Source: Myxococcales bacterium | Lineage (GTDB): Bacteria; Myxococcota_A; Polyangia; Polyangiales; DASUME01 | Direction: 5' to 3' | Assembly: GCA_047601445.1 (NCBI GenBank) | Contig: JASGJH010000001.1 | Location: forward strand, 9,056,001-9,120,000 | DNA length: 64,000 bases | In this document: in pieces, positions 8,268 through 57,326 of the stretch | How the letters are laid out: each line of letters opens with the position of its first letter | How positions within the stretch are numbered: the stretch's first letter is position 1 | Made by a program: the position numbers and the translations under genes | Notes under the pieces: model-generated | Seen by the model: only the letters and a program-made list of their open reading frames with translations | The model's database searches: none | What the model was told of the DNA's origin: nothing

Positions 8268-8317
8268 CGTCCGGAGCATTTCGCGAGACGGCGCGCGGCG
8301 GCTATGCTCGGGCCCTC

Positions 8318-9367
8318 ATGCAGTCCCCCCACGACATTGGGCCTCTTTGTGTAGTCACTGGCGGCGCCGGGTTTCTCGGCCGCAGCATCGTGAAATACCT
8401 GCTCGACCAGGGCTATCGCGTGCGCGTATTCGACCGCGCCGGGCATCCCGACCTCGATCCTCGCGCCGAGCTTTTCCTCGGTGACGTGCGGAACCGCGAC
8501 GAAGTGAGACGCGCTTTCGCGGGCGCAGGCACCGTGTTCCACACGGCTTCGATCATCTATCTGGCCGGCGTCGCCAGCGCGAAGACGCGACGTCAGGTGT
8601 TCGACGTCAACGTGGGTGGCACCCAAAACGTGATCGATGCGTGCCTCGAGTGCGGCGTGCCTCGCCTGGTGCACACCAGCACCAACAACGTGGTCTTCGA
8701 TCGCGAGCTCGTCGACAGCGATGAACGCGCGGCCTACGCCAAGCGCTGGATCGATCTCTATACCGAGACCAAGATGCTCTCCGAGCGAGCCGTCCTCGCC
8801 GAGGGGAGGCGCGGCAAGCTGCGCACGTGCGCGCTGCGACCCGGCGGCATCTGGGCGCCCTATGGCGGCGGCGTGATGATCGACAAGGTGCTCGATCAGA
8901 TCGCGCAGGGCACGTTGATCGCGCGCATCGGAGCGGGCGGCCTGGCCGACAACACGCACGTGGAGAACCTGTGCGAAGCGGAGCTCTTGGCGGCCCGCGC
9001 CCTGCTCGAAAAGCCCGAGCTCGTGAGCGGGGAGGCCTACTTCATTACAGACGGGGAACCGATGGATCCGGTGGATTGGTTTGCTCCGCTGGTTGAAGGG
9101 CTCGGCGCCAAGTTGCCCACGCGCCGGCTGCCCGCGTCCGTGATGTACGGCCTCGGCTACGCTTGCGAGTGGGCCGCACGTTGGGGCAAGAAGGCGCCGC
9201 TGCTCACGCGCGTCGAAGTGCTCAAGGTGACGCGACGCCACAGCTTCCGCATCGACAAGGCGCGCGAGCACCTCGGCTACACACCGCGCATCCAGAGCCG
9301 CGAGGGCCTGCTCGAGTGCTTGCCCTACGCACGCGAGTACCTGGCGAAGAAGCGCGCCAGAGGTTGA
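8318..9367 (+). CDS. 3-beta-hydroxysteroid dehydrogenase family extended SDR
   Basis: TGGAGFLG, VFHTAS, VNVGGT, YTETK (YxxxK), LRPGGIW, GEAYFITDGEP. Confidence 0.85.
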   Translation: MQSPHDIGPLCVVTGGAGFLGRSIVKYLLDQGYRVRVFDRAGHPDLDPRAELFLGDVRNRDEVRRAFAGAGTVFHTASIIYLAGVASAKTRRQVFDVNVGGTQNVIDACLECGVPRLVHTSTNNVVFDRELVDSDERAAYAKRWIDLYTETKMLSERAVLAEGRRGKLRTCALRPGGIWAPYGGGVMIDKVLDQIAQGTLIARIGAGGLADNTHVENLCEAELLAARALLEKPELVSGEAYFITDGEPMDPVDWFAPLVEGLGAKLPTRRLPASVMYGLGYACEWAARWGKKAPLLTRVEVLKVTRRHSFRIDKAREHLGYTPRIQSREGLLECLPYAREYLAKKRARG

Positions 9368-30845: not shown

Positions 30846-32336
30846 GTGCGCGCGCCCGAGAGTCGTCTGCGTGCGCTCAACCAGCGGTCGGTCTCTGCCA
30901 AGGGCAAGTTCGTCCTGTACTGGATGACCTCCGCCCGCAGGCCGCACTACAACTTCGGCCTCGAGCATGCGGTGGCGCTGGCCAAGCAGCACCACGTCCC
31001 CTTGCTGGTACTGGAGGCCCTGCGCGTGGGCTATCCGTGGGCGTCCGTGCGTCTACACGACTTCGTGCTGGCTGGCATGCGCGATCACCTGGCGCACTTC
31101 GAGGGCAGCGCCGTCACCTATTACCCCTACGTGGAGCCTTCACCCGGAGCTGGTTCCGGATTGCTCGCGGCGCTCGCAGAGCACGCGTGCTCGGTGGTGG
31201 CCGACGACTACCCCGCATTCTTCTTGCCTCACATGCTCGAGGCCGCCGCGCGCAAGATCTCGGTGTGCATGGAGGCCGTGGATGGGAACGGCTTGCTGCC
31301 GATCTCCGCGGCAGACGGGCGGACCTTCGCGACAGCCTATAGTTTCAGGCGCTTCTTGCAGCAGAAGCTGCCGGCCGAGCTTTCACGCGTGCCGCGCAAG
31401 GATCCGCTCAAGGGTGTGCAGCTCGCCGAGCTCACCAAGCTGCCGCGGGGGATCGCTGCGCGTTGGCCCGCGGTCAGCGAGGCCGAGCTCGCCGATCGGA
31501 CGGGACTGCTCGCGCGACTGCCGATCGATCAGAGCGTCCCGGTGGTGACCGCCTACGAAGGTGGCTATGTGGCGGGGGCCAAGCAGCTCAAGCGCTTTCT
31601 TGGTCAGCAGCTCGCGCACTACGCAGACGCGCGCAGTCACCCGGACTCGGGTGCCAGCAGCGGACTGTCGCCGTGGCTGCACTTCGGTCACGTATCGACG
31701 CATCAAGTCATCGCCGAGCTGATGAAGGTGGAGGACTGGGACGGCCATCCCAGGGGCAAGACCCGCAACGGCACACGCGAGGGCTTTTGGGGGCTCAGCG
31801 CAGGGGCCGACGCGTTCCTGGACGAGCTGGTGACGTGGCGCGAGCTCGGCTTCAACACTTGCGCCACCCTCGAGAACTACGCGGACTACGACTCCTTGCC
31901 GGATTGGGCGCGGGAGACCCTGCGCGAGCACGAGAAGGACCCGCGCGAGCCCCTTTACACACTGGCGCAGCTCGAGCGCGCGGAGACCTACGACGAGATC
32001 TGGAACGCGGCCCAGCGCCAGCTGCTCTGGGAGGGACGCATCCACAACTACCTGCGCATGTTGTGGGGCAAGAAGATCCTCGAGTGGACACGGCATCCGC
32101 GTGAGGCACTCGAGATCATGATCCAGCTCAACAACAAGTACGCCGTGGACGGGCGCGATCCCAACTCCTACTCCGGCATCTTTTGGGTGCTCGGGCGCTA
32201 CGACCGCCCCTGGGCACCCAAGCGGAAGATCTTCGGCAGCATTCGCTACATGAGCAGCGCGTCCACTCAGCGAAAGCTACGCCTGCGTCGCTATCTCGAG
32301 CATTACGGAAGTGCCGCCCAGGGAGAGCTGTTCTGA
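30846..32336 (+). CDS. phr: class II CPD DNA photolyase
   Basis: VLYWM, SGLSPWLHFGH, FLDELVTWREL, IHNYLRMLWGKKILEW, DGRDPNSY, DRPW, IRYM. Confidence 0.92.
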   Translation: MRAPESRLRALNQRSVSAKGKFVLYWMTSARRPHYNFGLEHAVALAKQHHVPLLVLEALRVGYPWASVRLHDFVLAGMRDHLAHFEGSAVTYYPYVEPSPGAGSGLLAALAEHACSVVADDYPAFFLPHMLEAAARKISVCMEAVDGNGLLPISAADGRTFATAYSFRRFLQQKLPAELSRVPRKDPLKGVQLAELTKLPRGIAARWPAVSEAELADRTGLLARLPIDQSVPVVTAYEGGYVAGAKQLKRFLGQQLAHYADARSHPDSGASSGLSPWLHFGHVSTHQVIAELMKVEDWDGHPRGKTRNGTREGFWGLSAGADAFLDELVTWRELGFNTCATLENYADYDSLPDWARETLREHEKDPREPLYTLAQLERAETYDEIWNAAQRQLLWEGRIHNYLRMLWGKKILEWTRHPREALEIMIQLNNKYAVDGRDPNSYSGIFWVLGRYDRPWAPKRKIFGSIRYMSSASTQRKLRLRRYLEHYGSAAQGELF

Positions 32337-33352
32337 GGCCTCGACGGGCCCTCTGTGGCTGCGGGCAGTACGTCCTCCGGGAAGTCCAGCTGACGCGCGG
32401 GGGGGCGCGCACGTTGACCCTGGACCAGTCGCTCGTCGAGGAAACGCGGGAACTCACGGGCGTGATCGCGTGTCGCACTCAGCGCGAGTGCGAGCTTGCG
32501 AGGCGTGGGCACCACGGCGCGTCCGCAGCGCGGATCGTAATCCCGAGCGGCGACCAGGAGACCGATCGCGTGATAGAGGCGGCTCGCAGCGCGCACGGCG
32601 AGGCCGGCCGTGAAGGGCAGTGCGCTGATGCCTCGTTCGGCGGAGGTGTAGTAGCGATCGGCTTCGCGTAGCAGGGTGCGCATCACCTCCTGCATGGCGG
32701 AGAGCAGCGCTGGGTCGCTGGGGAAGGGCCCGCGGATGTCGCGCGGCAGCTGGGTCGCGCCGGCGGCGAGCAAGAGCCGGCGGGGTAGGTAAAGGCGGCC
32801 GAGTCCCCAATCTTCCTGGACGTCGCGACAGATGTTGGTGAGCTGCATGGCGATGCCGAGGTGGGCGGCCGGCAACAGCGCGTCGTCGCGTGTGATGCCG
32901 AAGACGTGGCACATCATCAGGCCCACCACGCCCGCCACGCGGTGGCAGTAAAGCAACAGATCGTCGAGGGTCTCGTAGCGTGCGCCGAGCACGTCCATGC
33001 CCATGCCGTCGATCAGCTCACGCGGATAGCGTATGGGGAGCCCCGAGTTGAGCGCCACCGCCCTGAAAGCACGCAGGGCTGGGTCACCGAGGGCCGTGGC
33101 CATGTCGGGCTCGGCGTAGCACTCTTCCAGCTCACGCTTGAGGCGCTCGAGCGCAGCCGGTTGCTCCGCCGCGGGTGCGTCATCGATGGCGTCATCCACG
33201 CGCCGGCAATAGGCGTAGACCGCCGCAGCACGGTCCCGCGCGTCCGGCGCCAGGAACCGCGCAGCCAGGGCGAAGCTCTTGGAGTTCTGCTCGAGGATCT
33301 CTCGGCACTCACGCAGGGCGAGCGCATGCGAAGGAGAGTTGGGCTGACTCAC
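32303..33352 (-). CDS. crtB: phytoene synthase
   Basis: SKSFALA, YAYCRRVDDAID, YCHRVAGVVG, LGIAMQLTNICRDVQED, GRLYLP. Confidence 0.93.
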   Translation of the reverse strand: MSQPNSPSHALALRECREILEQNSKSFALAARFLAPDARDRAAAVYAYCRRVDDAIDDAPAAEQPAALERLKRELEECYAEPDMATALGDPALRAFRAVALNSGLPIRYPRELIDGMGMDVLGARYETLDDLLLYCHRVAGVVGLMMCHVFGITRDDALLPAAHLGIAMQLTNICRDVQEDWGLGRLYLPRRLLLAAGATQLPRDIRGPFPSDPALLSAMQEVMRTLLREADRYYTSAERGISALPFTAGLAVRAASRLYHAIGLLVAARDYDPRCGRAVVPTPRKLALALSATRDHAREFPRFLDERLVQGQRARPPARQLDFPEDVLPAATEGPSRPQNSSPWAALP

Positions 33353-34953
33353 GGGAAGTCCTCCAGGATGACGCTGGTGGTGGCTTTGGCGGAGTTGATG
33401 ACGCCTGGCATGCCAGCGCCCGGGTGGGTGCCGGCCCCCACGATATACAGGCCGGGGATGTGCTCGTCGCGGTTGTGGGGGCGAAACCAGGCGCTCTGGG
33501 TGAGCGTCGGAGCGCACGAGAAGGCCGAGCCCTGAAAGGAGCGCAAATCGCTCGCAAAGCCCTGCGGAGTGAGCCAGCGCTTGACCACCACGTGGTCACG
33601 CAGGTTCGGCAACCAGCGTTCGAGGTAGGCCAAGATGCGATCCGCGTAGACGGGGCCCAGCGTCTGCCAATCGAGCGCCGCGTGTCCGAGGTGCGGCACC
33701 GGCGACAGCACGTAGAAGCTATCGCAGCCGGGCGGCGCAAGGCTGGGATCGGTCACGCTTGGTGCGTGCAAATACAGGCTGAAGTCGTCGGGCAATCGAT
33801 GGCCGCCGAAGATGTCGCGCAGCAGCTCTTCGTAGCGCGGACCGAAGATCACCGTGTGGTGGACGACCTCGTCGCGGTAGGTGCGATCGGTGCCGAAATA
33901 CAGCACGAACAGGCTCATCGACCAGTCCATGCGCGCGAGGCGAGCCGCCTTGCGGCGCGCGGTGCGCTCGCCAGCGAAGAGCGTGTGATAGGTGTGATGG
34001 ATGTCGGCGTTGGAAACCACCAGATCGAAGCGCTCGCTCGACTCGTGGCCCTCCACCCGCAGCCAGTGCTCCGCGCCCTTGTGGCCCCGTCGCACGTCGA
34101 TGCCAGCGACCGGCGCGTCGAGCCTCAGTTCGCCGCCGAGTTCCTCGAACAGCTTGACCAGGGCCTGCACCAGGGCGCCCGTGCCGCCCAGCGGGAACAG
34201 CACGCCCCACTTCTTCTCCAAATAGTGGATCAGCGTGTAGATGCTGCTGGTGGCGAAGGGATTCCCTCCCACGAGCAGCGAGTGAAAGCTGAGGGCTTGA
34301 CGCAGATGCTCGTCCTTCACAAAGCGGCTCACCGTGCTGTAGACCGAGCGGTCTGCGCGCAGGCGCATGAGGTCCGGCGCGCAACGCACCATGTCCGAGA
34401 AGCGCAAGAATGGCGTGGCGACGAGCTCCGTGTAGCCCACGTCGAACACACGCTTGGAGTACTCCACGAATTCCAGATAGCCCTGGGCGTCGTGCGGGCT
34501 GCGCTCGCGGATTTGCTCCAGCATGCGCTCCGTGCTGCCCACGTAGTCGAATGCATCCCCGTCGGCCCACGCGAGCCGGTAGAAGGGCGTGACGGGTACC
34601 AAGGTGACGTAGTCGGAGAGCTTGCGTCCACACAGCTCGAACAGCTCCTCGATGCAGTGCGGCGCCGTGATCACGGTCGGCCCACCATCGAACGTGAAGC
34701 CCTGCTCCTGGTACACGTAAGCGCGCCCACCTGGCTTGTCGCGGGCCTCGAAGATGACCACGTCGAACCCTGCGTGCTGCAGCCGAATCGCCGCCGCCAG
34801 CCCGCCGAAGCCGCTGCCCACCACGGCTACCCGTGCGCGCCGTCCATGCTCCGGGGTCGCGCCCGCCTTCGCGCGCGGCTCGCGATCGCGGCCCTGGCGC
34901 GTGCGTGCGCCGCTCACGGGCGTCACGCCACCTGCTGGTTTTGCCTCAGCCAT
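33349..34953 (-). CDS. crtI: phytoene desaturase
   Basis: GSGFGGLAAAIRL, FDGGPTVIT, HSLLVGGNPF, QSAWFRPHN, VGAGTHPGAGMPGV. Confidence 0.95.
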   Translation of the reverse strand: MAEAKPAGGVTPVSGARTRQGRDREPRAKAGATPEHGRRARVAVVGSGFGGLAAAIRLQHAGFDVVIFEARDKPGGRAYVYQEQGFTFDGGPTVITAPHCIEELFELCGRKLSDYVTLVPVTPFYRLAWADGDAFDYVGSTERMLEQIRERSPHDAQGYLEFVEYSKRVFDVGYTELVATPFLRFSDMVRCAPDLMRLRADRSVYSTVSRFVKDEHLRQALSFHSLLVGGNPFATSSIYTLIHYLEKKWGVLFPLGGTGALVQALVKLFEELGGELRLDAPVAGIDVRRGHKGAEHWLRVEGHESSERFDLVVSNADIHHTYHTLFAGERTARRKAARLARMDWSMSLFVLYFGTDRTYRDEVVHHTVIFGPRYEELLRDIFGGHRLPDDFSLYLHAPSVTDPSLAPPGCDSFYVLSPVPHLGHAALDWQTLGPVYADRILAYLERWLPNLRDHVVVKRWLTPQGFASDLRSFQGSAFSCAPTLTQSAWFRPHNRDEHIPGLYIVGAGTHPGAGMPGVINSAKATTSVILEDFP

Positions 34954-35983
34954 AGCTCTGTTCCAGTCGTGCGAGCTCGGCCGCCAGCGCCTCGAGCGCC
35001 GCGCCGTGGGAGAATGCGCCCTCGAGCTCCTGCATGGCTGCGCCCACGGCGAGCCGAACGCGCGCTCGCCCCAGCGGCTCCACGGCCTGTGCCAGGCGTT
35101 GCTTGAGCTCCACCAGCTGTTCGCCGCGCCCCACTTGCTTCGAGAGTTGCTTGTAGCTGAGTTGGTCCAGGCTCTCCGCTGCCCACGCCCACACCCAGTT
35201 CACGCGCTGTCCGCGCAAGTCCTCGAGCGCCTTGTCCTGGCGCTCCGGCGCCACGAAGGCACCCAGGTCGTCGAGCATCTGCAGCACCGTGCCAGTGCGC
35301 TCCCCAAAGCGCGCCAGCGCTTCCACATCCGCAGCGCGCGCCTGGGCCACCAGCGCTCCCAGGCGTGCGGCGAAAGCCATCAAGGCACCGGTCTTGAGCT
35401 GACTCGTGGTGTGCGCCACCGCGGGCACCTCGGCGCGCTTCAGCTCGGAGATGTTCAGCGCCAGGTCGAGCGCTTGCCCCTCGTGACAGCGCAAGAAGCA
35501 GCGATGGGCGGCTCGCGTGGTGGCCAGCGCGCGTTCGGGCTCGAGCTCGAGCTCATCGAGCTTGCTCAAGGCCACGAAGTACAGCCAGTTGCCCACGTTG
35601 AGCGCGCGGGGCATGCCCAGCTGCCGATGGAGCGCCGGCGCACCGCGACGTTCTTCGGCGTCGTCCTGGATGTCGTCGACGATGAGCGAGCCCGCGTGCA
35701 AGAGCTCGATGGCTTCGAGAGCTGCCCTGGGCGGCTGTCGCGCCAGGCCACCCGCCAGGCCGTAGCTCGCCTCCACCAGGCGCGCGCGGAAGGCCTTGCC
35801 GGGCCGGGACAAGAACTCCTTGGCACCTGCGAACAGGGCGCGCTCGAAGAGCTGGGGGTCGATGCCCAGGCCCGCGCACTGCCGTGCCTCGTTTTCCAGG
35901 GCGAACGAGAGGCCGTCAGCCTTGGCGTCGGCGTTGGGCTCGCCGTGCGTCTCGGACGGGTCGGGTTGGGGACCTGGCTTCAT
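34946..35983 (-). CDS. crtE: geranylgeranyl diphosphate synthase (polyprenyl synthetase)
   Basis: GKAFR, ELLHAGSLIVDDIQD..RRG, GQALDL, KTGAL, QMLDDL. Confidence 0.88.
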   Translation of the reverse strand: MKPGPQPDPSETHGEPNADAKADGLSFALENEARQCAGLGIDPQLFERALFAGAKEFLSRPGKAFRARLVEASYGLAGGLARQPPRAALEAIELLHAGSLIVDDIQDDAEERRGAPALHRQLGMPRALNVGNWLYFVALSKLDELELEPERALATTRAAHRCFLRCHEGQALDLALNISELKRAEVPAVAHTTSQLKTGALMAFAARLGALVAQARAADVEALARFGERTGTVLQMLDDLGAFVAPERQDKALEDLRGQRVNWVWAWAAESLDQLSYKQLSKQVGRGEQLVELKQRLAQAVEPLGRARVRLAVGAAMQELEGAFSHGAALEALAAELARLEQSYG

Positions 35984-37152
35984 GGCAGCTGCTCCAGCTG
36001 CACGCCGCGCGCGCTGCGCAACATGTCCAGGGCCCGCTTGAGCGACAGCCCGCGCGGGGGCGCCCCCATGAAGATGCGCGCGCGGTCCGCGGCGCTCAGC
36101 TCCGCAGCGTAGAATCGCTCGATCAACGGCGCGGGCAGGCGATAAAAATGCTCGAGCACCTCGAACCTCCGCTCGGGCTCGAAGAGTCCGAACATCATGC
36201 GCGTGAGCAAGAAGAGAAATGGCTGTTGTTCGGCGTGCTGCACACGGAAGCGCGCGAGGGCGGAGTCGGCGGCGCGCGGCGCGTGGCGACTCTGGGCCAG
36301 GGCGCTCGCAAAGCGCACCGCGATCGGAAACGAGTAGCCAGTGACCGGATGGAAGAAGCCTGCGCCATAGCCCGCTGCCAGCGCTCCCCCGGAGGCCTCG
36401 ACTTGCTCGGCCTTCCAGGGCATCGGCAAGCTCCCGCGCTCCTCGCGCAACACCTCACGAACCTCAAACCCTTGCTCCCGTGCATAGCTCAGGATGCGGG
36501 CCTTGGAGGCCTCGGCATCGAGGCCGGCGTGATCGGAGAAGAAGGTCTCTTCGAACAAGAAGCGCTCGTCTCCAAAGGGCAGCACGTACATGAAGCGGAA
36601 GCCGTCGTGTTGGGACAGGCACGCATCGATGATCAACGGCTCGGTCGCTGCGGGGGCCTTGACCCTTGCCCGCAGCTCGAGTCCGACGAACTTTTGGAAG
36701 CCTTGCGCGTCGTGGGCGAGGGAGCGCGGCCCGCGGGCATCCACCACGAACCTGGCGCGCAGCACCTCGCCGTCGGACAGCTGGACCTCTTCACGCGCGA
36801 GCTGCGTCACCTCGGTGCCCAGTCGCAACGAGCAACCTGGGCGCATCAGCTGGGCGCTGAGCACGTCGTGCAGTCGTTCGCTCGTCACGCAGCCGTAGGC
36901 AGAGGCGAGGCGTCGGGCTCGGCGCGGGAAGCGCACGTGGTAGCCGTCCCAGCGTGCCACCACCAGGGGCTCCACCCAGGCTCCGTGCTCGGCTCGCACG
37001 TCACGCGCGTGAAAGCACCAGGTGTGATTGCCGCCCAAGCGCCCCTCGCGCTCGACGACGGCCACGCGAAGTCCCGGCTCGACGTCCAGCAGCGCCAGCA
37101 CGCTCAATGCGGTGGTCAGGCCGCCCCCGACGAACAGGTAGTCGTAGTGCAT
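35980..37152 (-). CDS. crtY: lycopene beta-cyclase (monomeric CrtY type)
   Basis: VGGGL, GGNHTWCFH, QKFVG, DGFRFMYVLP, FHPVTGYS, LIERFYA. Confidence 0.9.
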   Translation of the reverse strand: MHYDYLFVGGGLTTALSVLALLDVEPGLRVAVVEREGRLGGNHTWCFHARDVRAEHGAWVEPLVVARWDGYHVRFPRRARRLASAYGCVTSERLHDVLSAQLMRPGCSLRLGTEVTQLAREEVQLSDGEVLRARFVVDARGPRSLAHDAQGFQKFVGLELRARVKAPAATEPLIIDACLSQHDGFRFMYVLPFGDERFLFEETFFSDHAGLDAEASKARILSYAREQGFEVREVLREERGSLPMPWKAEQVEASGGALAAGYGAGFFHPVTGYSFPIAVRFASALAQSRHAPRAADSALARFRVQHAEQQPFLFLLTRMMFGLFEPERRFEVLEHFYRLPAPLIERFYAAELSAADRARIFMGAPPRGLSLKRALDMLRSARGVQLEQLP

Positions 37153-37192
37153 GACAGGTTTCTCTCCCTGGGAGGACACCCTCTCCAGACGT

Positions 37193-38512: not shown

Positions 38513-40870
<2,358 letters not shown>

Positions 40871-45563: not shown

Positions 45564-46393
45564 ACCGAGACCGCGAAGCGGATGAAGGGATGGTGTTGGT
45601 ACTCGACCAGCTGGATGTCCTCGAAGCCCAGTTCGTCGAGCGGCTTCTTGGCGATCTCGACGCGCGGCGGCGCCAGGGGTGCGCGCGTCAACTGGAGCTT
45701 GAGGCCTTCCACGTGGTTCAGGTAGATGTGCGCGTCGCCGAGGGTGTGCACGAACACGCCGGGCGTGAGGTCGCACTCCTGAGCCATCATCATCAGGAGC
45801 AGGGCGTAGCTCGCGATGTTGAAGGGCACCCCGAGCGCGATGTCGGCCGAGCGCTGGTAGAGCTGCATGTCGAGCCGACCCCGGTTGACGTAAAACTGGA
45901 AGAACGCGTGACACGGCGGCAGCGCCATGTGCGGGATGTCGGCCACGTTCCAGGCGCTCACGATGATGCGGCGCGAGGTGGGGTCGCGCTTGATGAGGTC
46001 GATGGCCTCGCGAATTTGGTCGATGCCGGGTTCCGAGCGCTCGCCGCGCACCTCGTGCTTGTCGCGCGTGTGCTGCGCGAAGGGGGCGCCCCAGTGTCGC
46101 CACTGGTGGCCGTACACGGGACCGAGCTCGCCGTTCTCGTCGGCCCAGGCGTCCCAGATGGGCGAGTGCTGCGTGAGGTCGTCGCGCACGTTGGTGCTGC
46201 CGCGCAGAAACCAGAGGAGCTCGCGCACGACACCGGTCCAGAGCACCTTTTTGGTGGTCAAGAGCGGAAAGCCTTCGCGCAAGTCGTAGCGCGTCTGCGC
46301 CCCGAAGATCGACAGGGTGCCGGTGCCCGTGCGGTCCTCGCGGCGTTCGCCCTCGTCGAGGACACGCTGGACCAGTTCCAAATACTGCTTCAT
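45560..46393 (-). CDS. thyA: thymidylate synthase
   Basis: MKQYL, DRTGTGT, FPLLTTK, GPVYG, MALPPCH, YQRSAD..GVPFN, DAHIY. Confidence 0.97.
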
Positions 46394-46920
46394 CGATTCC
46401 CCTCGGTCTTGGTCGGGTCCTGACTTGGCTCGCGCGTGGCAGCACGCGCGTCTTGACTCGGCTCGCGCGTGGCAGCACGCGCGTCTTGACTTGGCTCGCG
46501 CGTGGCGGCACGCGCGTCTTGACTCGGCTCGCGCGTGGCAGCACGCGCGTCGACACACTCATCGATCCGGTCGCCCGTGATCTCGCCGCGCAGGGCGTCT
46601 TGGTGGGCCAGCCAGGCTTCGATCACCTGGGGCGGCACGCGGTGCTTCTCCAGCGTGGTCTTGAGGATTTGCCTGCGACGCCCGAAGTGGCCGCCCATGA
46701 TGGGGTGCCGCTGATGGGCCTCGCGCATGTCCCGGCCGGAGTAGCGGACCTGCGCCCCCAAGAACTCGGCCGCATGCTCGTACTCCATGCGCTTGAGGCG
46801 GTCCCGATTGACGCGCGCAAACAGGAAGCCGATCATGCCGTCCGCGCATACGCGCTCCACGAAGTCGTCGATGATCGCAGAGAGCGCGAACTCCCCACCG
46901 ATGTCTTCGAAGTACGTCAC
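46390..46920 (-). CDS. group I truncated hemoglobin with repeat-derived C-terminal tail
   Basis: [25 protein letters not shown] (proximal His); C-terminal ([11 protein letters not shown])x4; ATGA overlap with thyA. Confidence 0.8.
46421..46551. repeat. 4 x 33-bp tandem repeat, each unit containing an 8-bp hairpin
   Basis: Unit TGACTYGGCTCGCGCGTGGCRGCACGCGCGTCT; internal CGCGCGTG-N4-CACGCGCG. Confidence 0.95.
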
Positions 46921-49010: not shown

Positions 49011-49520
49011 TTAGTGCAGGCCCTTTTCCGTGATGTAGCGCAGGGTAAACGCGGCTTTGTCGGCGTTCCCCTCGACGCTCGACTTGGCCACGAAGTGCTC
49101 GATGATGGAGCCGATGCCGAAGATCTTGCAGTGCACGGAGTTCTTGCTCAGCTGCTCCACGCCACTTGCGTTCTCGTCGAGCCGCACGGCGCCGAGGATC
49201 TCCACGCGATCACCGATTACCGCCGGCACCATTCGATACGACCAGCACTTCTCGCGCGGATCGAACTTGCTGATCTCCTCGATGATCACGTTCTCGCCCA
49301 CCAGCTTGCGGATGGGGAGCGGAGCTTCGAGCGGCTTTTCGAAGCGCAGGCGTCGACTCATGCCCGTCTCGTAGTCGCCCTTGTGCTCGAGCACTTCCAT
49401 GCGGATGAATCCGAGCGCCTCGCAGTAGAGGCGCTGCTGGTAGTCGAGGTTCAGGCATAGCTCTCGCCAGTACGTCTCGGCGCGGACAGGGAAACGCTTG
49501 CGGAATTCGGATTCGATCAC
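49011..49520 (-). CDS. DUF2505-like / START (SRPBCC) fold putative lipid-binding protein
   Basis: 169 aa; helix-grip-like pattern ending KIFGIGSIIEHFV plus a C-terminal helix; GTGA coupling to the upstream dehydrogenase. Confidence 0.65.
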   Translation of the reverse strand: MIESEFRKRFPVRAETYWRELCLNLDYQQRLYCEALGFIRMEVLEHKGDYETGMSRRLRFEKPLEAPLPIRKLVGENVIIEEISKFDPREKCWSYRMVPAVIGDRVEILGAVRLDENASGVEQLSKNSVHCKIFGIGSIIEHFVAKSSVEGNADKAAFTLRYITEKGLH

Positions 49521-50542
49521 ACCAGACCCTGTTCTTTGAGGTGCGCACAGGTCAGGCGGATGCCCTCCGCCAGGTTCACCTTGGGCTCGTAGCCCAGGTC
49601 CCTGCGTGCCTTGTCGATGCTGAAATAGTGATGCCTCACCATATAGCGCACGGCAAACCGGGTCATCCCATCCTCCGCATTGAGGGTGCCCCCGCGCAGG
49701 GTATCGATGCCCTCCTTGATGGCGGCCGCGGCAAAGACGACGGGGTACGGGACCCCGCCCAGGATCGGCGGAAGCTTCAGCTCGGCGAGCACTTTGCCCA
49801 CGAAAGTGAAGAACGGCAGCGGCTCGCCGTTCGTCACGAAATAGGCCTGACCCGCGCTCGGACTGTCGGGGACGAGCCGACGATCCGCCAGGAGCAGCGC
49901 ATCTACCAGATTGCCCACGTAGGTGAAGTCGGAGAGCTTGCGATTGAAGAGGCCCACCGAGAAGCGCAGCTTGCCCGCCTTGGCCCGCTGCAGGACCGCT
50001 GGAAAGAAGCGCCGATCGCCGGGGCCGAACACCACGTGGGGACGGATCGCGCAGGTGAGCACTCCGCGCTGGCCGTTGGCCGCCAGGATCTCCTGTTCCG
50101 CTACGATCTTGCTGTCGGAGTAGGGAGCCTGACTCTTGCTGGAGTAGGGCAGGGTCTCGTCGCCGTTCTCGATGTCCTCGCCTTCGTACACGGCGCTGGC
50201 GGTGCTCACGTACACGAGCTTCTTCACGCGGGCCTTCCAGCAAGCGCGCAACACGCTGCGCGAGCCGCCCAGATTCACCGACCACACGTCGCTCTCGCGG
50301 TTGTGTTTGGTGTGAACCAGCGAGGCGTTGTGGAAGACCGTGGTCACGCCCTCGCAGAGCTTGGCCAGCGCGTCGGTGTCACGGATATCCACCCGCTCGA
50401 AGCGCATGTCGGAGCGCCAGGCCTCTCCGAAGGGCTCCACCACGATCACCGCGTCGCCGCGGGCGATCAGCGCGTCCACCAGGGCGCGACCCACGAAGCC
50501 GGCCCCCCCCGTCACCAACGAAACCTGCCTCTGCGTTTCCAT
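49517..50542 (-). CDS. NSDHL/Erg26-like sterol-4-carboxylate 3-dehydrogenase (3-beta-HSD family; SdmB-like)
   Basis: TGGAGFVG, STASAVYEGEDIENGDETLPY, YSDSK, CAIRPHVVFGPGD, DFTYVGN, GQAYFVTNGEP. Confidence 0.8.
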   Translation of the reverse strand: METQRQVSLVTGGAGFVGRALVDALIARGDAVIVVEPFGEAWRSDMRFERVDIRDTDALAKLCEGVTTVFHNASLVHTKHNRESDVWSVNLGGSRSVLRACWKARVKKLVYVSTASAVYEGEDIENGDETLPYSSKSQAPYSDSKIVAEQEILAANGQRGVLTCAIRPHVVFGPGDRRFFPAVLQRAKAGKLRFSVGLFNRKLSDFTYVGNLVDALLLADRRLVPDSPSAGQAYFVTNGEPLPFFTFVGKVLAELKLPPILGGVPYPVVFAAAAIKEGIDTLRGGTLNAEDGMTRFAVRYMVRHHYFSIDKARRDLGYEPKVNLAEGIRLTCAHLKEQGLV

Positions 50543-50566: not shown

Positions 50567-50582
50567 TAGAATCGTCAATCTA
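50567..50582. promoter_or_regulatory. imperfect palindrome in the divergent promoter; candidate TetR operator
   Basis: TAGAAT-CGTC-AATCTA flanked by A-tracts in the 101-bp intergenic gap. Confidence 0.35.
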
Positions 50583-50643: not shown

Positions 50644-51783
50644 ATGGGCAAGCACGACTACGGGCACAACAAACCTGCGCCGCCGACGTTCGAAGAGGCC
50701 AACAACCTCCGTCAGCGGGCGCGCGTCGCCGGCATGGATCCCAACTACTGGTATCCGGCCATGATGTCGCGGGACTTGGCGGTCGGTGCGGTCAAAGAGG
50801 TGGTGTTCTGGCACCGCTCGTTCGCGTTCTTCCGCGGGCAAGACGGCGTGGTGCGCGCCATGGAGAACCGCTGTGCCCATCGCAACCTCAAGCTGACGCT
50901 GGGGCAGGTCGAAGGTTGCACGCTGCGCTGCGCCTACCACGGCTGGGCCTACGACGGCGAGGGCTGCCTGGTGGACATGCCCCACAACGACTTCGGCAAG
51001 AAGCTCAAGATCTCGCTGGAGACGTTCCCCGTGGCCGAGCGCTACGGGATGATCTTCTTCTTCCCCGGTGATCCCGAGCTCAGCAGCAAGCGCGAGATCC
51101 CTAGCATTCCCGAGATCGAAGGTGCGGACCCCTGGGCCCACGGCGTCATCGACTTCCACTGGAAGGGTCATCACTCGATGATCCTCGACAACGTCAGTGA
51201 CTTCACGCACGGCTACCTGCACCGCAAGTGGCGCCCCTTCGAGGGAGATCAGCTGTTGAGCCTCGAAGAGGCCAACGACCGCGTGATGCTGCAGTACAAC
51301 GCCAAGATCGCGGCCGCGAAGATCATGGACGTGCTGATCGATCGCAAGGCCCACGCGGGAACCTCGCACTACTCCTGTTACGAGTACCCTTACCAGTGGT
51401 CGAACACCGAAGAGTTCGTGAAGCACTGGCTGTTCGTGTGCCCGGTGGACGAGCGCAACACCATGGTGTTCTTCCTCTTCTACTACGCTGACTTCAAGGT
51501 TCCCTTCTTGCCGATCAAGCTGCCGCGCAAGCTGATGACCCCGCTGGTCCGCATGGGCCACGAGTACCTGGTGCGCCCGCTGTTCAACGAGGACGGCTGG
51601 GCCGTGCAGATGGAGCAGGAGGGCTACGACGGCCATTGGGACGCGCCGCTGGCAGAGGTGAACCCTCAGGTGCTCGCATTTCAGCGCCTCACCGTGCGCA
51701 AGTGGGAGACCTACCTGGAGAGTCAGAAGCTGACCAACATCAAGCGCAAGAAGCGGGAGCGCTCGGAGAATGCAGATGCCTGA
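50644..51783 (+). CDS. Rieske non-heme iron oxygenase (candidate SdmA-like sterol C-4 methyl oxidase)
   Basis: CAH..CAYH Rieske ligands; DNVSDFTHGYLH and NEDG mononuclear Fe ligands. Confidence 0.88.
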   Translation: MGKHDYGHNKPAPPTFEEANNLRQRARVAGMDPNYWYPAMMSRDLAVGAVKEVVFWHRSFAFFRGQDGVVRAMENRCAHRNLKLTLGQVEGCTLRCAYHGWAYDGEGCLVDMPHNDFGKKLKISLETFPVAERYGMIFFFPGDPELSSKREIPSIPEIEGADPWAHGVIDFHWKGHHSMILDNVSDFTHGYLHRKWRPFEGDQLLSLEEANDRVMLQYNAKIAAAKIMDVLIDRKAHAGTSHYSCYEYPYQWSNTEEFVKHWLFVCPVDERNTMVFFLFYYADFKVPFLPIKLPRKLMTPLVRMGHEYLVRPLFNEDGWAVQMEQEGYDGHWDAPLAEVNPQVLAFQRLTVRKWETYLESQKLTNIKRKKRERSENADA

Positions 51784-53402
51784 AGCCATCGAGATCACCA
51801 GCAGTGCATCCGTGCGCGACGCCCTCAAGAAGGCGGAGGCGCGCGGCCTCATCGAGTGTTACGAGCCCGCCACGCGCAAGCCCCTCGGCAGTGTGCAGGT
51901 CACCCCGCCCGAGAGCCTGCCCGGCCTGGTGCAGAGGGCGCGCAAGGCGCAGACGCTGTGGGCCAAGACGTCCTTCGACGAGCGCCGCAAGGTGATCGGG
52001 TTGTTGCTCGACCACGTGCTGGCCCATGCGGACGAGCTGTGCGACGTGGTGTCGCGCGACTCCGGCAAGACGCGCCATAACGCCATGCTGGGCGAGGTCT
52101 GGCCGGTGGTGGAGAAGGCGCGTTGGACCATCGCCCACGGTGAGAAGTTCCTGCAGACGGAGCGGGTTCCCTCCGGCGTCTTCCCCCACAAGCGTGCTCG
52201 CATCGAGTACGCACCGCTCGGCGTCATCGGCGTGATCGCGCCTTGGAACTACCCGCTGCAGAACATCCTCGGACCGACCATTCCTGCTTTGATGGCGGGC
52301 AACGCGGTGATCGTGAAGGTCAGCGAGTGGGTGGCCTGGTCGTCCGCGCGCTTCCAGAAGATCTTCGACGACGCCTTCAAGAAGGCTGGCTATCCGGTGG
52401 AGCTCGTGCAGATCGTGAACGGCTACGCCAAGACCGGCGCCGCGCTGGTCTCGTCGGGCGTGGACAAGATCGTGTTCACCGGTTCCCTCGAGAACGGCAA
52501 GCGCGTGCTCGCGCAGGCGGCAGACACGCTGACGCCGGTGGTGCTCGAGCTGGGTGGCAAGGATCCGCTCATCGTCTGCGACGACGCTCACATGGAGCAG
52601 GCGGTCCATGCGGCGTTGACTGGGTGCTTCATCAACTGCGGGCAGAACTGCCTGGCCAGCGAGCGCGCCCTGGTGTTCGACGCCGTCTACGACGCTTTCG
52701 CGGCGCGCGTGGTCGAGACCACCAAGCAGCTGCGCCAGGGCGAGCCGATGGGCGGATCCACCGTGGATCTGGGCGCCATCGTGTCGCCCTTGCAGCTCGA
52801 TTCTGATCGAGGGCCTGGTGCAGGAGGCCGTGCGGCAGGGGGCGCGCCTGTTGACTGGAGGCAAGCGAGCCCACGTGGAGCGCGGCCAATACTTCGAGCC
52901 CACCATCCTGGCGGACGTGACGCCCGACATGCGCATCGCCCACGAGGAGACCTTCGGGCCGGTGATGTTGCTGATGCGCGTCAAGAACGAGGAGGAGGCG
53001 CTGCGCGTGGCCAACGGCACGGCCTATGGCCTGGGCGCCACCGTGCTCTCCAAGGACGCGGCGCGCTGCCGACGCATGAGCTCGGCCCTGTCGGTGGGGA
53101 ACGTGTCGGTCAACGACTTCGGGCTCACGTACATGGCCATGGATTTGCCGTTCGGCGGCGTGCGTGGCTCGGGCTTCGGGCGCCTCAACGGCCGCGAGGG
53201 CCTGCGCGCCTGCACCAACATGAAGGCGATTCTCGAGGATCGCTTCCCGCTGCACGTGCCGGCCAAGGTGTTCCCCATCGGGCAGAACGCGGTCTCGGTG
53301 TCGCGCGAGGTCCTGCGCGTGCTCTACGAGCGTCGGCTCGGACAGCGCGTCGACGCCCTCGGCAAGTTGGCAGGCCTGGTGCTCAAGCGAGGCGAGTCGT
53401 GA
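51770..53402 (+). CDS. aldehyde dehydrogenase resembling the ALDH15/22 (Msc7/ALDH22A1) family (one apparent +1 frameshift at 52798-52803)
   Basis: CYEPAT, PWNYP, VKVSEWVAWS, LELGGKDP, GQNC, EETFGP, LPFGGVRGSGFGR; deleting one base gives 543 aa. Confidence 0.88.
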
Positions 53403-55045
53403 GTTCGCAGGCCGAGAGCTTCGACTACATCGTGGTCGGCGGCGGCTCGTCGGGCTGCGTGGTGGCGGGCGAGCTGTGCGCGGAGACGCGACTCGAGGTC
53501 GCACTCGTGGAGCAGGGCGACGACGCCGAGGCGCACCCCGAGACGCTGGAGGCGGACGGCTACAAGCACGCCTTCGCCAACGACGACCTGTTGCTCGACC
53601 GCTTCAGCACGCCGCAGGAGCACTGCAGGCAGCATCGCCTGTATTTGGGCTCCGGACGCGGGCTCGGTGGCAGCGGCTCCATCAACGGCATGGTCTACAC
53701 GCGTGGCGCCAAAGAGGACTACGCGAGTTGGCCGCGCGGCTATCAGTACGATGACCTGGCGCCGCTCTTCCAGTCCCTCGAGAACAAGCTGCGCGTGCGC
53801 CCGCGGGCCGGCACCGAGTTCACGGAGGTTTTCGTGCGTTCGGCCGAGGCCGCGGGCTTTCGCCGCAGTGCGAACATGAACGACGGCGACCTGTCGGGTG
53901 TGATCGGCTACGAGACCATGAACTACGAGGGCAGCGCGCGGCGCAGCTCTTACGTGTCCTACGTGCGCGAGGCACGGCAGCGCGAGAATCTGCACCTGGT
54001 GACGCGGGCGCTCACGCGACGCGTGATCTTCGAGGGCAACCGTGCGGTCGGCGTGGAGATCGAGCAGGCCGGCAAGCGCCGCGTCCTGCGCGCGCGCCGC
54101 GAGGTCATCCTGTGCGCCGGTGCGCTGGAGACGCCCAAGCTGCTGATGCTGTCGGGCGTGGGGCCGGCGGCCGAGCTGGCCAACCACGGTCTCAAGACGG
54201 TGGTCGACATGCCGTCGGTCGGCGAGAACCTGCACGATCATCCCAACGTCACGATGTTCTTCATGGGCAAGCACGAGGTGGACTCGTACTACCCGCAGTT
54301 GTACGGCTTCCATCGGGCCAACCCCGACAGTGACCTGCCCAAGGGACAGAGCGACACCTGCTACGTGATGTACCCCGCGCGCTCGTCGCTGCGCGAGGCC
54401 GCGATGCGCATGTTGCCGACCAAGCTGCCGGTGCCGCTCTACGGCAAGGCCTCCAAGGGGCTGATCCGCGCAGGCATCGCGGGCGCCACCAGTCTCGGCT
54501 TGGTGCAGGGTGGCATCGCACGCGTCTGGGGCTGCGTGGTGATCCTGGGCAAGCCCAAGAGCCGCGGACGACTCAGCCTGGCGTCGCGAGACCCCAAGCT
54601 GCAGGCCCACATCGATCCGGGCTACTTCACGCATCCGGAGGACATGGAGACCATGATCCGCGGCGTGAAGCTCGGTCGGCGCATCGCACAGGCGGAGCCG
54701 CTCGCCAAGTGGGGCAACTTCCCGCTGTTGCCGTTGGTGGCCAAGACCGACAAGCAGATTCAGGACTTCATCGAGGGCAACTTGATGACCACCTTCCACT
54801 ACGCAGGTACCTGCCGTATGGGCGAGGACAAGGCCAGCGTGGTCGATCTGGAGCTCAAGGTGCGCGGCACGCGCGGTCTGCGCGTGGCGGACGCTTCGGT
54901 GGTGCCGTTCACGCCCGTGTCAGCGATGAACGCGCCCAGCATGGTGATCGGCCTCAAGGCGGCGCGCCTGGTGCTCGCCCACGAGCGCTCACTGGGCAGC
55001 TCGAACTCGGAGATCAGCGGAGAACGTGAGGCATGGGGCGGCTGA
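53399..55045 (+). CDS. GMC family FAD oxidoreductase
   Basis: GGGSSG, GLGGSGSINGMVYTRG, TPKLLMLSGVG, GENLHDH, FHYAGTCRMG, LRVADAS; GTGA overlap with the ALDH stop. Confidence 0.92.
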   Translation: MSSQAESFDYIVVGGGSSGCVVAGELCAETRLEVALVEQGDDAEAHPETLEADGYKHAFANDDLLLDRFSTPQEHCRQHRLYLGSGRGLGGSGSINGMVYTRGAKEDYASWPRGYQYDDLAPLFQSLENKLRVRPRAGTEFTEVFVRSAEAAGFRRSANMNDGDLSGVIGYETMNYEGSARRSSYVSYVREARQRENLHLVTRALTRRVIFEGNRAVGVEIEQAGKRRVLRARREVILCAGALETPKLLMLSGVGPAAELANHGLKTVVDMPSVGENLHDHPNVTMFFMGKHEVDSYYPQLYGFHRANPDSDLPKGQSDTCYVMYPARSSLREAAMRMLPTKLPVPLYGKASKGLIRAGIAGATSLGLVQGGIARVWGCVVILGKPKSRGRLSLASRDPKLQAHIDPGYFTHPEDMETMIRGVKLGRRIAQAEPLAKWGNFPLLPLVAKTDKQIQDFIEGNLMTTFHYAGTCRMGEDKASVVDLELKVRGTRGLRVADASVVPFTPVSAMNAPSMVIGLKAARLVLAHERSLGSSNSEISGEREAWGG

Positions 55046-55704
55046 GTCCGAAAGACGGCGCCAAGCGCGCCAAGGCGGACATGTACCGGCGCCTCATCCT
55101 CGAGGCGGCCGAGCGCATCTTCGCCAGCGCGGGCTTCGAAGACGCCAAGATCCAGGACATCGCCCAGGGAGCGGGCATTTCGCTCGGCACGCTCTACACC
55201 GTGTTCCCGGGCAAGTCCGAGATCTACGACGCCGTCCAGGAGCAGCGCGGTCGCGAGATTCTCGAGAGCATCTTCCGCGCCTTGCAGGGACACGAGGGCG
55301 TGTACGACGCCTCCATGCGCGGCATCGAAGCCTACGTGCGCTCGCTGGTAGAGCGCCCGGCCTATCTGCGCATGCACCTGCGGGAAGGCCTGTCATGGAC
55401 CGAGCGGGATTCCATGCGCAGCGGGGAACAGCGTGCGATCTGGGAGCGCGGTGTGTCCATCGCGGTGAGCCTGCTGCAGGCAGGTATCGAGCAGGGCTAC
55501 TTCCACGGCGAGAATCCGCCGGAGCTGCTGCTCAAGATGATGATCGCCAGTCACCAGGTCCAGATCAAGGACTGGCTCGATCGCGGCGCCGTGCCGAGCG
55601 AGGTGGACTCGCTGGTGGCGCGCATGCAGGCACATTTTTCGCGCGCGTTCGTGCGCGACGAGAGTGCACGGGCGAACAAGAACAAGAAGCGTGTGAGCGG
55701 GTAG
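55033..55704 (+). CDS. TetR/AcrR family transcriptional regulator
   Basis: ILEAAERIFASAGFEDAKIQDIAQGAGISLGTLYTVFPGK. Confidence 0.93.
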   Translation: MGRLSPKDGAKRAKADMYRRLILEAAERIFASAGFEDAKIQDIAQGAGISLGTLYTVFPGKSEIYDAVQEQRGREILESIFRALQGHEGVYDASMRGIEAYVRSLVERPAYLRMHLREGLSWTERDSMRSGEQRAIWERGVSIAVSLLQAGIEQGYFHGENPPELLLKMMIASHQVQIKDWLDRGAVPSEVDSLVARMQAHFSRAFVRDESARANKNKKRVSG

Positions 55705-55715
55705 GGGAGAGAGTC

Positions 55716-57122
55716 ATGCAGACAGAGGCCAGCGTAGGCAGCACAGGCAAGTCCCGCGGCAACACCGCGCCATCCAAGAGCTACCGAGCGGTTCCGACGG
55801 TCTCGGGCGGTCTGCCGGTGCTCGGTCACAGCATCGAGTTCGCCGCCAATTTGTTGGGGCTGGTGAAGCGCGGTTACCAGGAGCACGGCGAGGTCGCGGG
55901 GCTCAAGGTGTTCGGCCGCAACATCGTGCTCTTGAGCGGCACCGACGCCCAGGAGGCCCTGTTTCGGGCGCCCGACGAGGTGTTGAGCCCGAACGAGGCC
56001 TACAAGATCATGACGCCCGTGTTCGGCAAGGACGTCGTGTACGACGCCAGCCCCGAGCGCATGGGTGAGCAACTCGGCATGCTGCGACCCGCGCTGCAGG
56101 ACAAGCGCATGCGCACCTATGGCGAGATCGTGGCCGAGGAGACCCGGCGCGCTGTATCGAGCTGGGGCGAGCGCGGCGAGCTCGATTTGGTGGAGTTCTG
56201 TGCCTCGCTGACCAACTTCACCTCCACCCACTGCCTGCTCGGGCGCGAGTTCCGCGAACAGATGAGCACCGAGTTCGCGCAGGTCTACTACGACCTGGAG
56301 CGCGGCGTGACCCCGGCGGCGTACATCCATCCGAACCTGCCGCTGCCTTCCATGCGCAAGCGCGATAAGGCCCGCGTGCGCCTGGTGGAGATGATCGAAG
56401 AGATCGTGAATCAGCGCCAGCGCAGCGGCAGCCGCGGCGAGGACTTCCTGCAGACCTTGATGGACGCGGAGTACAAGAACGGGGACAAGCTTACGCCCCA
56501 CGAGATCACCGGCATGTTGCTGGCAGCCATGTTCGCCGGTCACCACACCAGCAGCGTGACCACGGCGTGGACCCTGATCGAGCTCGCGCGCACCCCAGAC
56601 TATCTCGACCGCGTTCTCAACGAGCTGCACACGGTGTACAGGCCTGGGGACGACGTGACCTTCCAGTCGCTGCGTCAGATCCCGCTCACCGAGTACGCCG
56701 TCAAGGAATCGCTGCGGCTTCACCCCCCGCTCTACATCCTCCTGCGTTCGGCCCTCGTGGACTTCGAGTACCGGGACTATCTGCTGCCCAAGGGCACCTG
56801 GCTCGCCACGTCGCCCTGGGTCTCGCACCGCATTCCCGGCATCTTCCCCGAGCCGGAGCGCTTCGATCCGGACCGCTTCGCCCCGGGTCGCGAGGAGGAC
56901 AAGAAACAGTTCTCGTTCATCGCCTTCGGCGGCGGGCGCCACAAGTGCCTCGGCAACGCGTTCGCCATGCTGCAGGTCAAGACCATCTTCGCCATCTTGT
57001 TGCGCGGCTTCGAATTCGAGGTCCTGCACGACCCGATCATCCCGGAGAGCGGCCTGGTCATGGGGCCCAAGAAGCCATTCCGCGTGCGGTATCGTCGGCT
57101 GCGCCCCAACGGTCAATTCTGA
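55716..57122 (+). CDS. cyp51: cytochrome P450, CYP51 (sterol 14-alpha-demethylase) family
   Basis: YKIMTPVFGKDVVYDA (SRS1), AAMFAGHHTSS (I helix), ESLR, PERFDP, FGGGRHKCLG heme motif. Confidence 0.9.
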   Translation: MQTEASVGSTGKSRGNTAPSKSYRAVPTVSGGLPVLGHSIEFAANLLGLVKRGYQEHGEVAGLKVFGRNIVLLSGTDAQEALFRAPDEVLSPNEAYKIMTPVFGKDVVYDASPERMGEQLGMLRPALQDKRMRTYGEIVAEETRRAVSSWGERGELDLVEFCASLTNFTSTHCLLGREFREQMSTEFAQVYYDLERGVTPAAYIHPNLPLPSMRKRDKARVRLVEMIEEIVNQRQRSGSRGEDFLQTLMDAEYKNGDKLTPHEITGMLLAAMFAGHHTSSVTTAWTLIELARTPDYLDRVLNELHTVYRPGDDVTFQSLRQIPLTEYAVKESLRLHPPLYILLRSALVDFEYRDYLLPKGTWLATSPWVSHRIPGIFPEPERFDPDRFAPGREEDKKQFSFIAFGGGRHKCLGNAFAMLQVKTIFAILLRGFEFEVLHDPIIPESGLVMGPKKPFRVRYRRLRPNGQF

Positions 57123-57134
57123 GGAGAACGACAC

Positions 57135-57326
57135 ATGAAGATCGTCATCGATTGGGGTCTGTGCCAGGGGCACGCGAACTGCACCGGCGACGCTCCCGAC
57201 GTGTTTTCGGTGGACGACAACGGCAAGCTCACTGTGCTGCTCCCGGAGCCGCCCGAAGAGATGCGAAGCCAGCTGGAGCTCGCGGTCCGCTACTGTCCGA
57301 CGGGCGCGATTCGGATCGAGGGCTAA
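57135..57326 (+). CDS. fdx: 3Fe-4S ferredoxin (P450 partner)
   Basis: CQGHANC...CPTGAI; GAGGAG RBS right after cyp51. Confidence 0.9.
   Translation: MKIVIDWGLCQGHANCTGDAPDVFSVDDNGKLTVLLPEPPEEMRSQLELAVRYCPTGAIRIEG

Follow-up and report, generated by a model that had tools for sequence, protein, structure and literature searches.

An Msc7/ALDH22-family aldehyde dehydrogenase in a myxobacterial sterol gene cluster: a candidate 4-formylsterol dehydrogenase

A sterol gene cluster with an aldehyde dehydrogenase

A 64,000-nucleotide stretch of a Myxococcales genome (assembly GCA_047601445.1, contig JASGJH010000001.1, positions 9,056,001 to 9,120,000; called the window here, with positions counted from its first letter) carries a compact run of sterol-type genes, and within it an aldehyde dehydrogenase (ALDH; 51776..53402, + strand) of the Msc7/ALDH22 family. 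The order on the + strand is an SdmA-like Rieske oxygenase (50644..51783), the ALDH, a GMC flavin oxidoreductase of the primary-alcohol-oxidase type (53399..55045), a TetR-family regulator (55033..55704), a CYP51 sterol 14-demethylase (55716..57122) and a small ferredoxin-like open reading frame (ORF; 57135..57326); the first four overlap end to end. Divergent from the Rieske gene, on the - strand, lies an NSDHL/ERG26-like 3beta-hydroxysteroid dehydrogenase/C-4 decarboxylase (49517..50542). From sequence and gene context we favour, with moderate confidence, the view that the ALDH is a 4-formylsterol dehydrogenase in the relay from methyl to acid (CH3-CH2OH-CHO-COOH) by which sterols lose their C-4 methyl groups.

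The ALDH start at 51776 (an alternative ATG lies at 51770) overlaps the Rieske stop at 51781-51783, and the coordinates agree with the overlap claimed in an earlier note made from the sequence alone. The ORF list gives the gene as two halves in different frames, with one extra base at ~52801-52802; both halves match Pfam Aldedh, and reading through the break yields a protein of 541 aa. All seven motifs that the note had named are present in the read-through protein, at residues 26 (IECYEPAT), 93, 180, 220, 446, 474 and 486, the last three in the second reading frame. With an X at the break, this protein aligns gap-free with an intact metagenomic relative (P0001) over 541/541 residues at 90% identity, and the relative has GATC at the break position. 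Relatives are of near-equal length (494-573 aa for all 120 among the matches listed).

Three broken genes of the window were examined: a long ORF near 5373 that we take to be alpha-2-macroglobulin-like, an ABC permease near 39998, and the ALDH near 52801. They have the word AGCTCGA-[A/T]-TC in common at the break. Across the genome, a +1 frame change was found at 8 of 21 scorable sites with this word; at AGCTCGATC the figure is 2 of 238, and at random sites it is 11 of 1284. Because +1 shifts recur at the same word genome-wide, the break in the ALDH is most likely a systematic assembly error. A true pseudogene in the source organism, which would be compatible with the readings at family level, has the disrupted frame of the assembly in its favour and is very improbable against the break word common to the three genes, the genome-wide enrichment (8/21) and a 90%-identical relative that reads GATC there and is gap-free elsewhere. 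Recurrent one-base insertions at GATC-containing words disrupt several genes of assembly G000, and its frameshifts should therefore count as likely errors.

Family placement

The earlier note had likened the ALDH to plant ALDH22A1 and yeast Msc7, and phylogeny bears this out. In an IQ-TREE analysis of 38 rows (20 of 58 having been dropped for time), the window ALDH, its bacterial relatives, myxobacterial paralogues and the eukaryotic proteins, named ALDH22A1 and Msc7 proteins among them, lie on one side of a branch of length 0.44 with support of 99/100; FastTree recovers the same grouping from 261 rows (0.98). With the frame read through, the ALDH is not placed with succinate-semialdehyde dehydrogenase (SSADH)-type enzymes. 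The tree excludes the nearest group, at 37-44% identity, from the family; the references include no labelled apocarotenoid dehydrogenase. The eukaryotes are monophyletic in IQ-TREE (97/97), and their placement beside a myxobacterial paralogue group is not firm (91/93), likewise in the supplementary information (SI) of PMC8237579.

Pairwise comparison agrees with the trees. The ALDH is 43.9% identical to Klebsormidium ALDH22A1 (P0140), 42.7% to P0148 and 41.9% to a chytrid Msc7 (P0179). A search for longer relatives returned, in the 40-49% range, named ALDH22A1 proteins (Klebsormidium, Chlorella) and chytrid Msc7, together with proteins of Monosiga, Naegleria, Thecamonas, red and brown algae and diatoms. 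ALDH nomenclature requires more than 40% identity within a family (PMC4409362); the ALDH exceeds this value, a weak test in that one outgroup protein stands at 40.7%. In the reciprocal direction, four of four named eukaryotic proteins score the ALDH top in the genome, at 427-442 bits against at most 314 for anything else.

The catalytic residues C292, E258 and N158, as well as K181 and E391, are invariant in 115/115 bacterial and 115/115 mostly eukaryotic rows. The pocket residues G106, K114, Y159, N163 and N291 are common to bacterial and eukaryotic rows and rare in 30 outgroup rows, and 23 columns are family-specific (in at least 80% of bacterial and 75% of eukaryotic rows, but in no more than 30% of the outgroup). 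An AlphaFold model of P0001 has the standard ALDH fold (pLDDT 94.1; TM 0.81-0.82), and the PDB yields no close family member in the top 60 of 200 sequence matches or in the listed fold matches. The window ALDH has no N-terminal hydrophobic anchor (maximum hydropathy 0.15 against a pass mark of 1.8); by that mark, 2 of 120 bacterial versus 143 of 227 mostly eukaryotic proteins have one.

Two other assignments were rejected. The SSADH model PRK09407 (NF006916) is the best NCBIfam match and represents the nearest outgroup, yet P0001 scores 411.7 against a cut-off of 521; Klebsormidium ALDH22A1 falls under it too (410), and proteins at or above the cut-off (L102, 538; L086, 520.5) fall outside the Msc7/ALDH22 clade. 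With the model for Rv0768-type AldA (TIGR04284), whose cut-off is 775, the score is 258 bits.

A second myxobacterial paralogue group (L104, L108, L111, L113) branches next to the eukaryotes. In L104 (6580-9743) the paralogue stands in tandem with the main ALDH, downstream of OSC-SdmB-SdmA, and in L176 two ALDHs flank SdmB-SdmA.

Gene neighbourhoods and co-occurrence

Neighbourhoods were compared at the best 80 of 124 loci of the family in the genome collection; up to 8 kb was scanned (24 loci have less than 3 kb on one side), and neighbours were counted by tblastn with score thresholds set by eye. A GMC gene is present at 65 of the 80 loci, an ERG25-like PF04116 hydroxylase at 33, an NSDHL-like gene at 31, an SdmA-like Rieske gene at 20 and CYP51 at 15. 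Rarer neighbours are a putative CPI-like gene without a Pfam match (13), SdmB-like genes (11), ERG24 (3), cyclase (2), SMT (2) and EBP (1). Rieske and hydroxylase never occur in the same locus (0/80). As a control, sterol-marker genes above the same thresholds were sought at 20 loci of the nearest outgroup ALDHs and found at none.

A survey of 241 genomes of the phylum (family call at no less than 439 bits, next score 394) gives the same picture. The ALDH family occurs in 24 genomes, and the GMC clade in 23, every one among the 24. A Rieske or hydroxylase gene is present in 23/24 ALDH genomes versus 5/217 others, or, counted by genus, in 11/12 versus 5/164. CYP51-like genes are found in 21 of the 24 and also in 35 other genomes; cyclases, in 13 of the 24 and in 14 others. 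The tight partners of the ALDH are the GMC enzyme, the C-4-type oxygenase and the ERG26-like gene. The distribution of the ALDH depends on sterol genes; its tie to the cyclase gene osc, one of the two markers that the earlier note had singled out, is loose (13/24, and 0/5 gammaproteobacterial carriers).

Gammaproteobacterial loci (L041, L045, L053, L057, L058, L060, L064-L066, L071, L082) hold CPI-like, CYP51, GMC, ALDH, ERG25-like and NSDHL-like genes, and in L066 the P450 is a CYP51 fused to a ferredoxin. Five gammaproteobacteria with the GMC-ALDH-hydroxylase-NSDHL block were tested for a cyclase, and none has one (0/5). It is probable from this gene content that the block occurs in sterol users as well as makers, where it probably serves to strip methyl groups from cycloartenol- or lanosterol-type sterols ahead of breakdown.

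Evidence from eukaryotes

In Gonapodya sp. JEL0774, one gene model (P0263, KAJ3338986.1) has a PF04116 domain at residues 121-257 followed by a complete Msc7 from residue 267. Among the Atlas clusters nearest to its N-terminal stretch is 'methylsterol monooxygenase 2-2' (0.95).

Expression data for fungi point in the same direction; family membership of the proteins in these papers is by the name Msc7. In C. glabrata, gain-of-function Upc2A raises 11 genes, with MSC7 at the top and nine ergosterol genes among them; MSC7 is assigned no sterol response element (PMC8509923). It is also one of 35 whose expression goes up in an erg1 mutant (PMC5928633). The A. fumigatus Msc7 gene is among 97 that are bound by SrbA in chromatin immunoprecipitation (ChIP), and its expression drops in the srbA mutant; the regulon includes hypoxia genes as well (PMC4223079). 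Finally, amphotericin B enriched the yeast msc7 deletion together with erg5, cyb5 and ncp1 mutants, among many unrelated genes (PMC4763212).

Published accounts and related systems

The earlier note had called the family an orphan, which does not fully hold: a tie to sterols was printed in 2009 and again in 2021 under the label 'ERG27 analog', with another reaction proposed. A substrate for Msc7/ALDH22 was not found in the literature searched, nor was an assay of the family on sterols or a proposal of 4-formylsterol oxidation, though works under other names may escape such a search. The yeast protein of these accounts, P38694 (NP_011904), is presumably Msc7; we take the names to be equivalent, and the description matches. 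Desmond and Gribaldo (2009) used phyletic pattern to select the family from the Plesiocystis genome as their candidate for the missing C-3 ketoreductase, while noting that the yeast member fails to rescue erg27 (PMC2817430). Hoshino and Gaucher (2021) gave a tree of the 'ERG27-analog' with yeast P38694 and Arabidopsis ALDH22A1, and described mostly ERG25/ERG26 flanks (PMC8237579). Their tree shares E. salina, HdN1, Ketobacter and 42_54_T18 with the loci analysed here, the ERG25-/ERG26-like synteny is the same, and there too a second myxobacterial group lies near the eukaryotes. That synteny is found again in our counts (hydroxylase 33/80, NSDHL-like 31/80), and in the window it takes the form of the NSDHL-like gene plus a Rieske gene. 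The difference is one of reaction: those papers propose C-3 ketoreduction, whereas aldehyde oxidation is proposed here. In the SI text of PMC8237579 the words 'GMC' and 'oxidoreductase' were not found, and in the parts of the paper covered here the pairing of the family with SdmA is not made.

Three known systems are close enough for comparison. First, in the SdmA/SdmB(/SdmC) system, SdmA of E. salina or Calothrix accumulates a 4-methylaldehyde when expressed alone (PMC10202945). The text of that paper's supplement, whose gene maps are figures and lie outside a text search, does not contain 'aldehyde dehydrogenase' or 'GMC', and the main text of a 2024 preprint (10.1101/2024.11.01.621555), so far as represented here, does not contain 'dehydrogenase'. 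The window resembles this system in its SdmA-like Rieske gene, the nearby CYP51 and the genome's matches to OSC, squalene epoxidase, ERG24 and SMT; it differs in having an NSDHL/ERG26-like gene, a GMC gene and an ALDH, while SdmAB loci are mostly without the ALDH (1/50). Second, the window shares an ERG26-like decarboxylase with the eukaryotic ERG25/ERG26/ERG27 system, and an ERG25-like hydroxylase fills the oxygenase slot in other loci; in the window, a Rieske enzyme stands in for ERG25, alcohol and aldehyde have separate oxidisers, and no ERG27 was identified. Third, the mycobacterial CYP51 cluster with AldA Rv0768 brings together CYP51, a ferredoxin, a TetR regulator and an ALDH. The gene mix is alike, but the window ALDH belongs to another family than Rv0768. 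Family identity and sterol synteny are thus already known in print; new are the GMC partner, the occurrence beside an SdmA-like Rieske gene and an NSDHL-like gene, the eukaryotic corroboration and the proposal of a different reaction.

Proposed function

Among the readings considered, 4-formylsterol oxidation is the best supported; it is from the observed family membership, gene order, co-occurrence and catalytic residues that we infer substrate, reaction and cofactor. In the proposed scheme hydroxylation of the C-4 methyl would fall to the Rieske oxygenase, or in other loci to an ERG25-like di-iron hydroxylase; the GMC enzyme would turn the alcohol into an aldehyde, and the ALDH would convert the 4-formylsterol to a 4-carboxysterol, the last step of the relay, probably with NAD+. 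A preference for NAD+ is suggested by E184 after K181, if the usual rule for these positions applies. Oxidation at C-3 and release of CO2 would follow, both through the NSDHL-like neighbour. The scheme is proposed because an intact ALDH site, a fixed GMC partner, a swappable methyl-oxygenase and an ERG26-like decarboxylase fit together in it. Since SdmA and ERG25 manage all three oxidations alone, the ALDH is likely a helper that would draw stalled intermediates onward and spare O2 and reductant. Eukaryotic Msc7/ALDH22 would carry out the same reaction at the endoplasmic reticulum beside ERG25.

A broader claim we hold more tentatively, at somewhat less than even confidence: Msc7/ALDH22 as a whole may be an unrecognised 4-formylsterol dehydrogenase that eukaryotes inherited with other myxobacterial sterol genes. 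In bacteria, GMC and ALDH would then form a portable module that plugs into SdmA or ERG25-type oxygenases, with C-4 oxidation split over three enzymes; the label 'ERG27 analog' would be wrong and the plant 3-ketoreductase still missing. The family spans plants, algae, fungi and many protists, and its label in the literature is that of the missing C-3 ketoreductase. If the claim is true, the textbook sterol pathway gains an extra step, the question of the plant ketoreductase is reopened and the build-up of aldehyde with SdmA alone is accounted for. Moreover, signalling roles are reported for 4-formyl and 4-carboxy sterols (PMC6385002), and the enzyme could tune these signals. The bacterial members are soluble and sit in a compact operon, which should make testing easy in existing lanosterol-producing E. 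coli.

Several observations weigh against the 4-formylsterol assignment. SdmA is the best NCBIfam model for the window Rieske (NF052579, 341 bits), and its cut-off of 600 is not reached; the model was made for methanotrophs, and Rieske proteins from cyclase-SdmB clusters likewise reach just 396-409. Identity between the bacterial hydroxylase and an ERG25-type domain is no more than 26-33%. No oxygenase was found in the scanned stretch at 27 of the 80 ALDH loci, and no sterol marker at 24. In the survey, 17 of the 24 ALDH genomes belong to one family and 13 to one genus, so the co-occurrence statistics are overstated, the carriers being closely related. P0263 is a single case among the 120 matches listed and may be a fusion or two merged adjacent genes; either way, its sequence puts an ERG25-type gene beside MSC7 once. 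Animals carry out C-4 demethylation without this family (PMC2817430), and in E. coli the combination of SdmA with SdmB or SdmC suffices to demethylate lanosterol, with no ALDH of this kind (PMC10202945).

A reverse test, starting from the Rieske side, also counts against it. Of 157 SdmA-like loci from metagenomes the best 80 were taken (many on short contigs); 50 of them have an SdmB-like gene, 29 a cyclase and 28 CYP51. The ALDH lies near the SdmA-like gene in nine of the 80; eight of these are close kin of the window, and one is among the 50 with SdmB. Five SdmA-like genomes, all with a cyclase, are without the ALDH family (best scores 306-375 bits against 775-809 for members); they are four gammaproteobacteria with strong SdmA matches, one above the methanotroph cut-off, and G221, a fifth strong gammaproteobacterial match in an unpublished genome having been left out. 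Likewise, the hydroxylase occurs in four genomes that have no ALDH, and in three of these its neighbour is an NSDHL-like gene. Since most SdmA-like loci do without the ALDH, it is not required for SdmA chemistry, and an obligatory role next to SdmA is rejected: the ALDH is accessory. That GMC and ALDH are also found together with SdmA shows, for its part, that the pair is no simple substitute for it.

Alternative functions

An unlikely alternative, and the one that survives best, is that the ALDH acts on another sterol aldehyde, whether the C-14 (C-32) aldehyde leaked by CYP51, a C-19 aldehyde or one at the side-chain end, in remodelling or breakdown. The presence of CYP51 at 15/80 loci and in 21/24 genomes fits, as do the cyclase-less carriers, and the pairing of GMC with ALDH is a typical feature in the catabolism of terminal methyl groups. 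Against this, a Rieske or hydroxylase gene (53/80) and an NSDHL-like gene (31/80) are found near the ALDH more often than CYP51, 35 of 56 CYP51-like genomes are without the ALDH, CYP51 cannot take a 14-carboxy sterol any further, and the ERG26-like decarboxylase indicates an acid at C-4.

Quite unlikely, in our view, is the published assignment itself, by which the ALDH would be a 3-ketosteroid reductase that acts after ERG25 and ERG26 and ends C-4 demethylation. In ALDH catalysis a cysteine forms a thiohemiacetal and a thioester, intermediates to which a ketone has no productive access; ketoreduction is ill-suited to such a site, and all catalytic residues are retained. The family occurs in sterol-making eukaryotes without ERG27 and not in animals, which speaks for the ketoreductase, but fungi retain ERG27 plus MSC7, and MSC7 fails to rescue erg27 (PMC2817430). 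ERG25 and ERG26 flank the family in myxobacteria (PMC8237579 SI), a point in its favour too; yet the five cyclase-less gammaproteobacteria keep the ALDH by ERG25/26-like genes, and should these be sterol degraders, ketoreduction would be superfluous for them. The genome has an NSDHL-like gene, and no close SdmB or C-3 ketoreductase partner was identified in it (best SdmB-like match 30%), so that a ketoreductase is unaccounted for; this leaves the ketoreductase reading open and counts against 4-formylsterol oxidation. The fixed GMC partner, on the other hand, is left unexplained by a ketoreductase.

A general scavenger of membrane-lipid aldehydes (fatty, isoprenoid or apocarotenoid) merely riding with sterol genes, to which the 24/80 loci without a sterol marker and the solitary state of three of four members of the paralogue group nearest the eukaryotes (L108, L111, L113) might point, is slightly less probable still: the sterol link recurs across two phyla and with oxygenases of two unrelated kinds, and is missing from control loci; fungal sterol-regulon data agree with it (PMC4223079, PMC8509923), and 4/4 genomes seen with the paralogue have an SdmA-like gene and a cyclase.

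Other genes of the window and the genome

The note had also spoken of a sterol operon. CYP51, the SdmA-like Rieske and the NSDHL-like gene are indeed in place, but a cyclase and squalene epoxidase lie outside the window: a DCTAE-type cyclase adjoins a squalene-epoxidase match ~4.3 Mb away, and the genome has ERG24 and SMT matches too. The Rieske gene is the only SdmA-like gene found in this genome, and its closest relatives lie in clusters with SdmB, CYP51 and cyclase genes (50, 28 and 29 of the best 80 loci). The NSDHL-like protein (Pfam 3Beta_HSD; an upstream TTG at 50578 is a possible start) has human NSDHL as its best PDB match (6jkg, E 7e-44; next 3e-19) and matches the SdmB model weakly, at 74 bits against a cut-off of 600. 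The GMC gene (Pfam GMC_oxred_N/C) overlaps the ALDH stop through GTGA. Its nearest solved structures are chloramphenicol oxidase, alcohol oxidase and choline oxidase; identity as a cholesterol oxidase was rejected, with no such entry among 15 PDB matches.

The TetR gene (Pfam TetR_N) has relatives in 20 of the 80 ALDH loci. L120, L121 and L122 combine ERG25-like hydroxylase, TetR and NSDHL-like genes without ALDH or GMC. The top PDB matches of CYP51 are named cytochrome P450 51 (7jj1, E 6e-148; the organism is presumably M. capsulatus). The ferredoxin-like ORF, whose translation of 63 aa has the pattern CxxHxxC...CP, likely encodes the redox partner of CYP51; in one gammaproteobacterial locus the P450 bears a fused Fer4_15 domain.

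A second 3beta-HSD-like gene (window 7925-9367, +), 33% identical to the NSDHL-like protein, is a candidate for the unaccounted C-3 step. A DUF2505 protein (49011-49520, -), which overlaps the NSDHL-like gene and is retained in six close relatives, is a possible lipid carrier; we take DUF2505 to have a START-like fold. Farther off, the window holds what is presumably a carotenoid-type run (32303-37179, -; phytoene synthase, desaturase, polyprenyl synthase, cyclase), adjoined by a photolyase-like gene (30846-32336). At 46390-46640, about four tandem copies of a 12-residue unit end a globin-like ORF and run into the start of thymidylate synthase.

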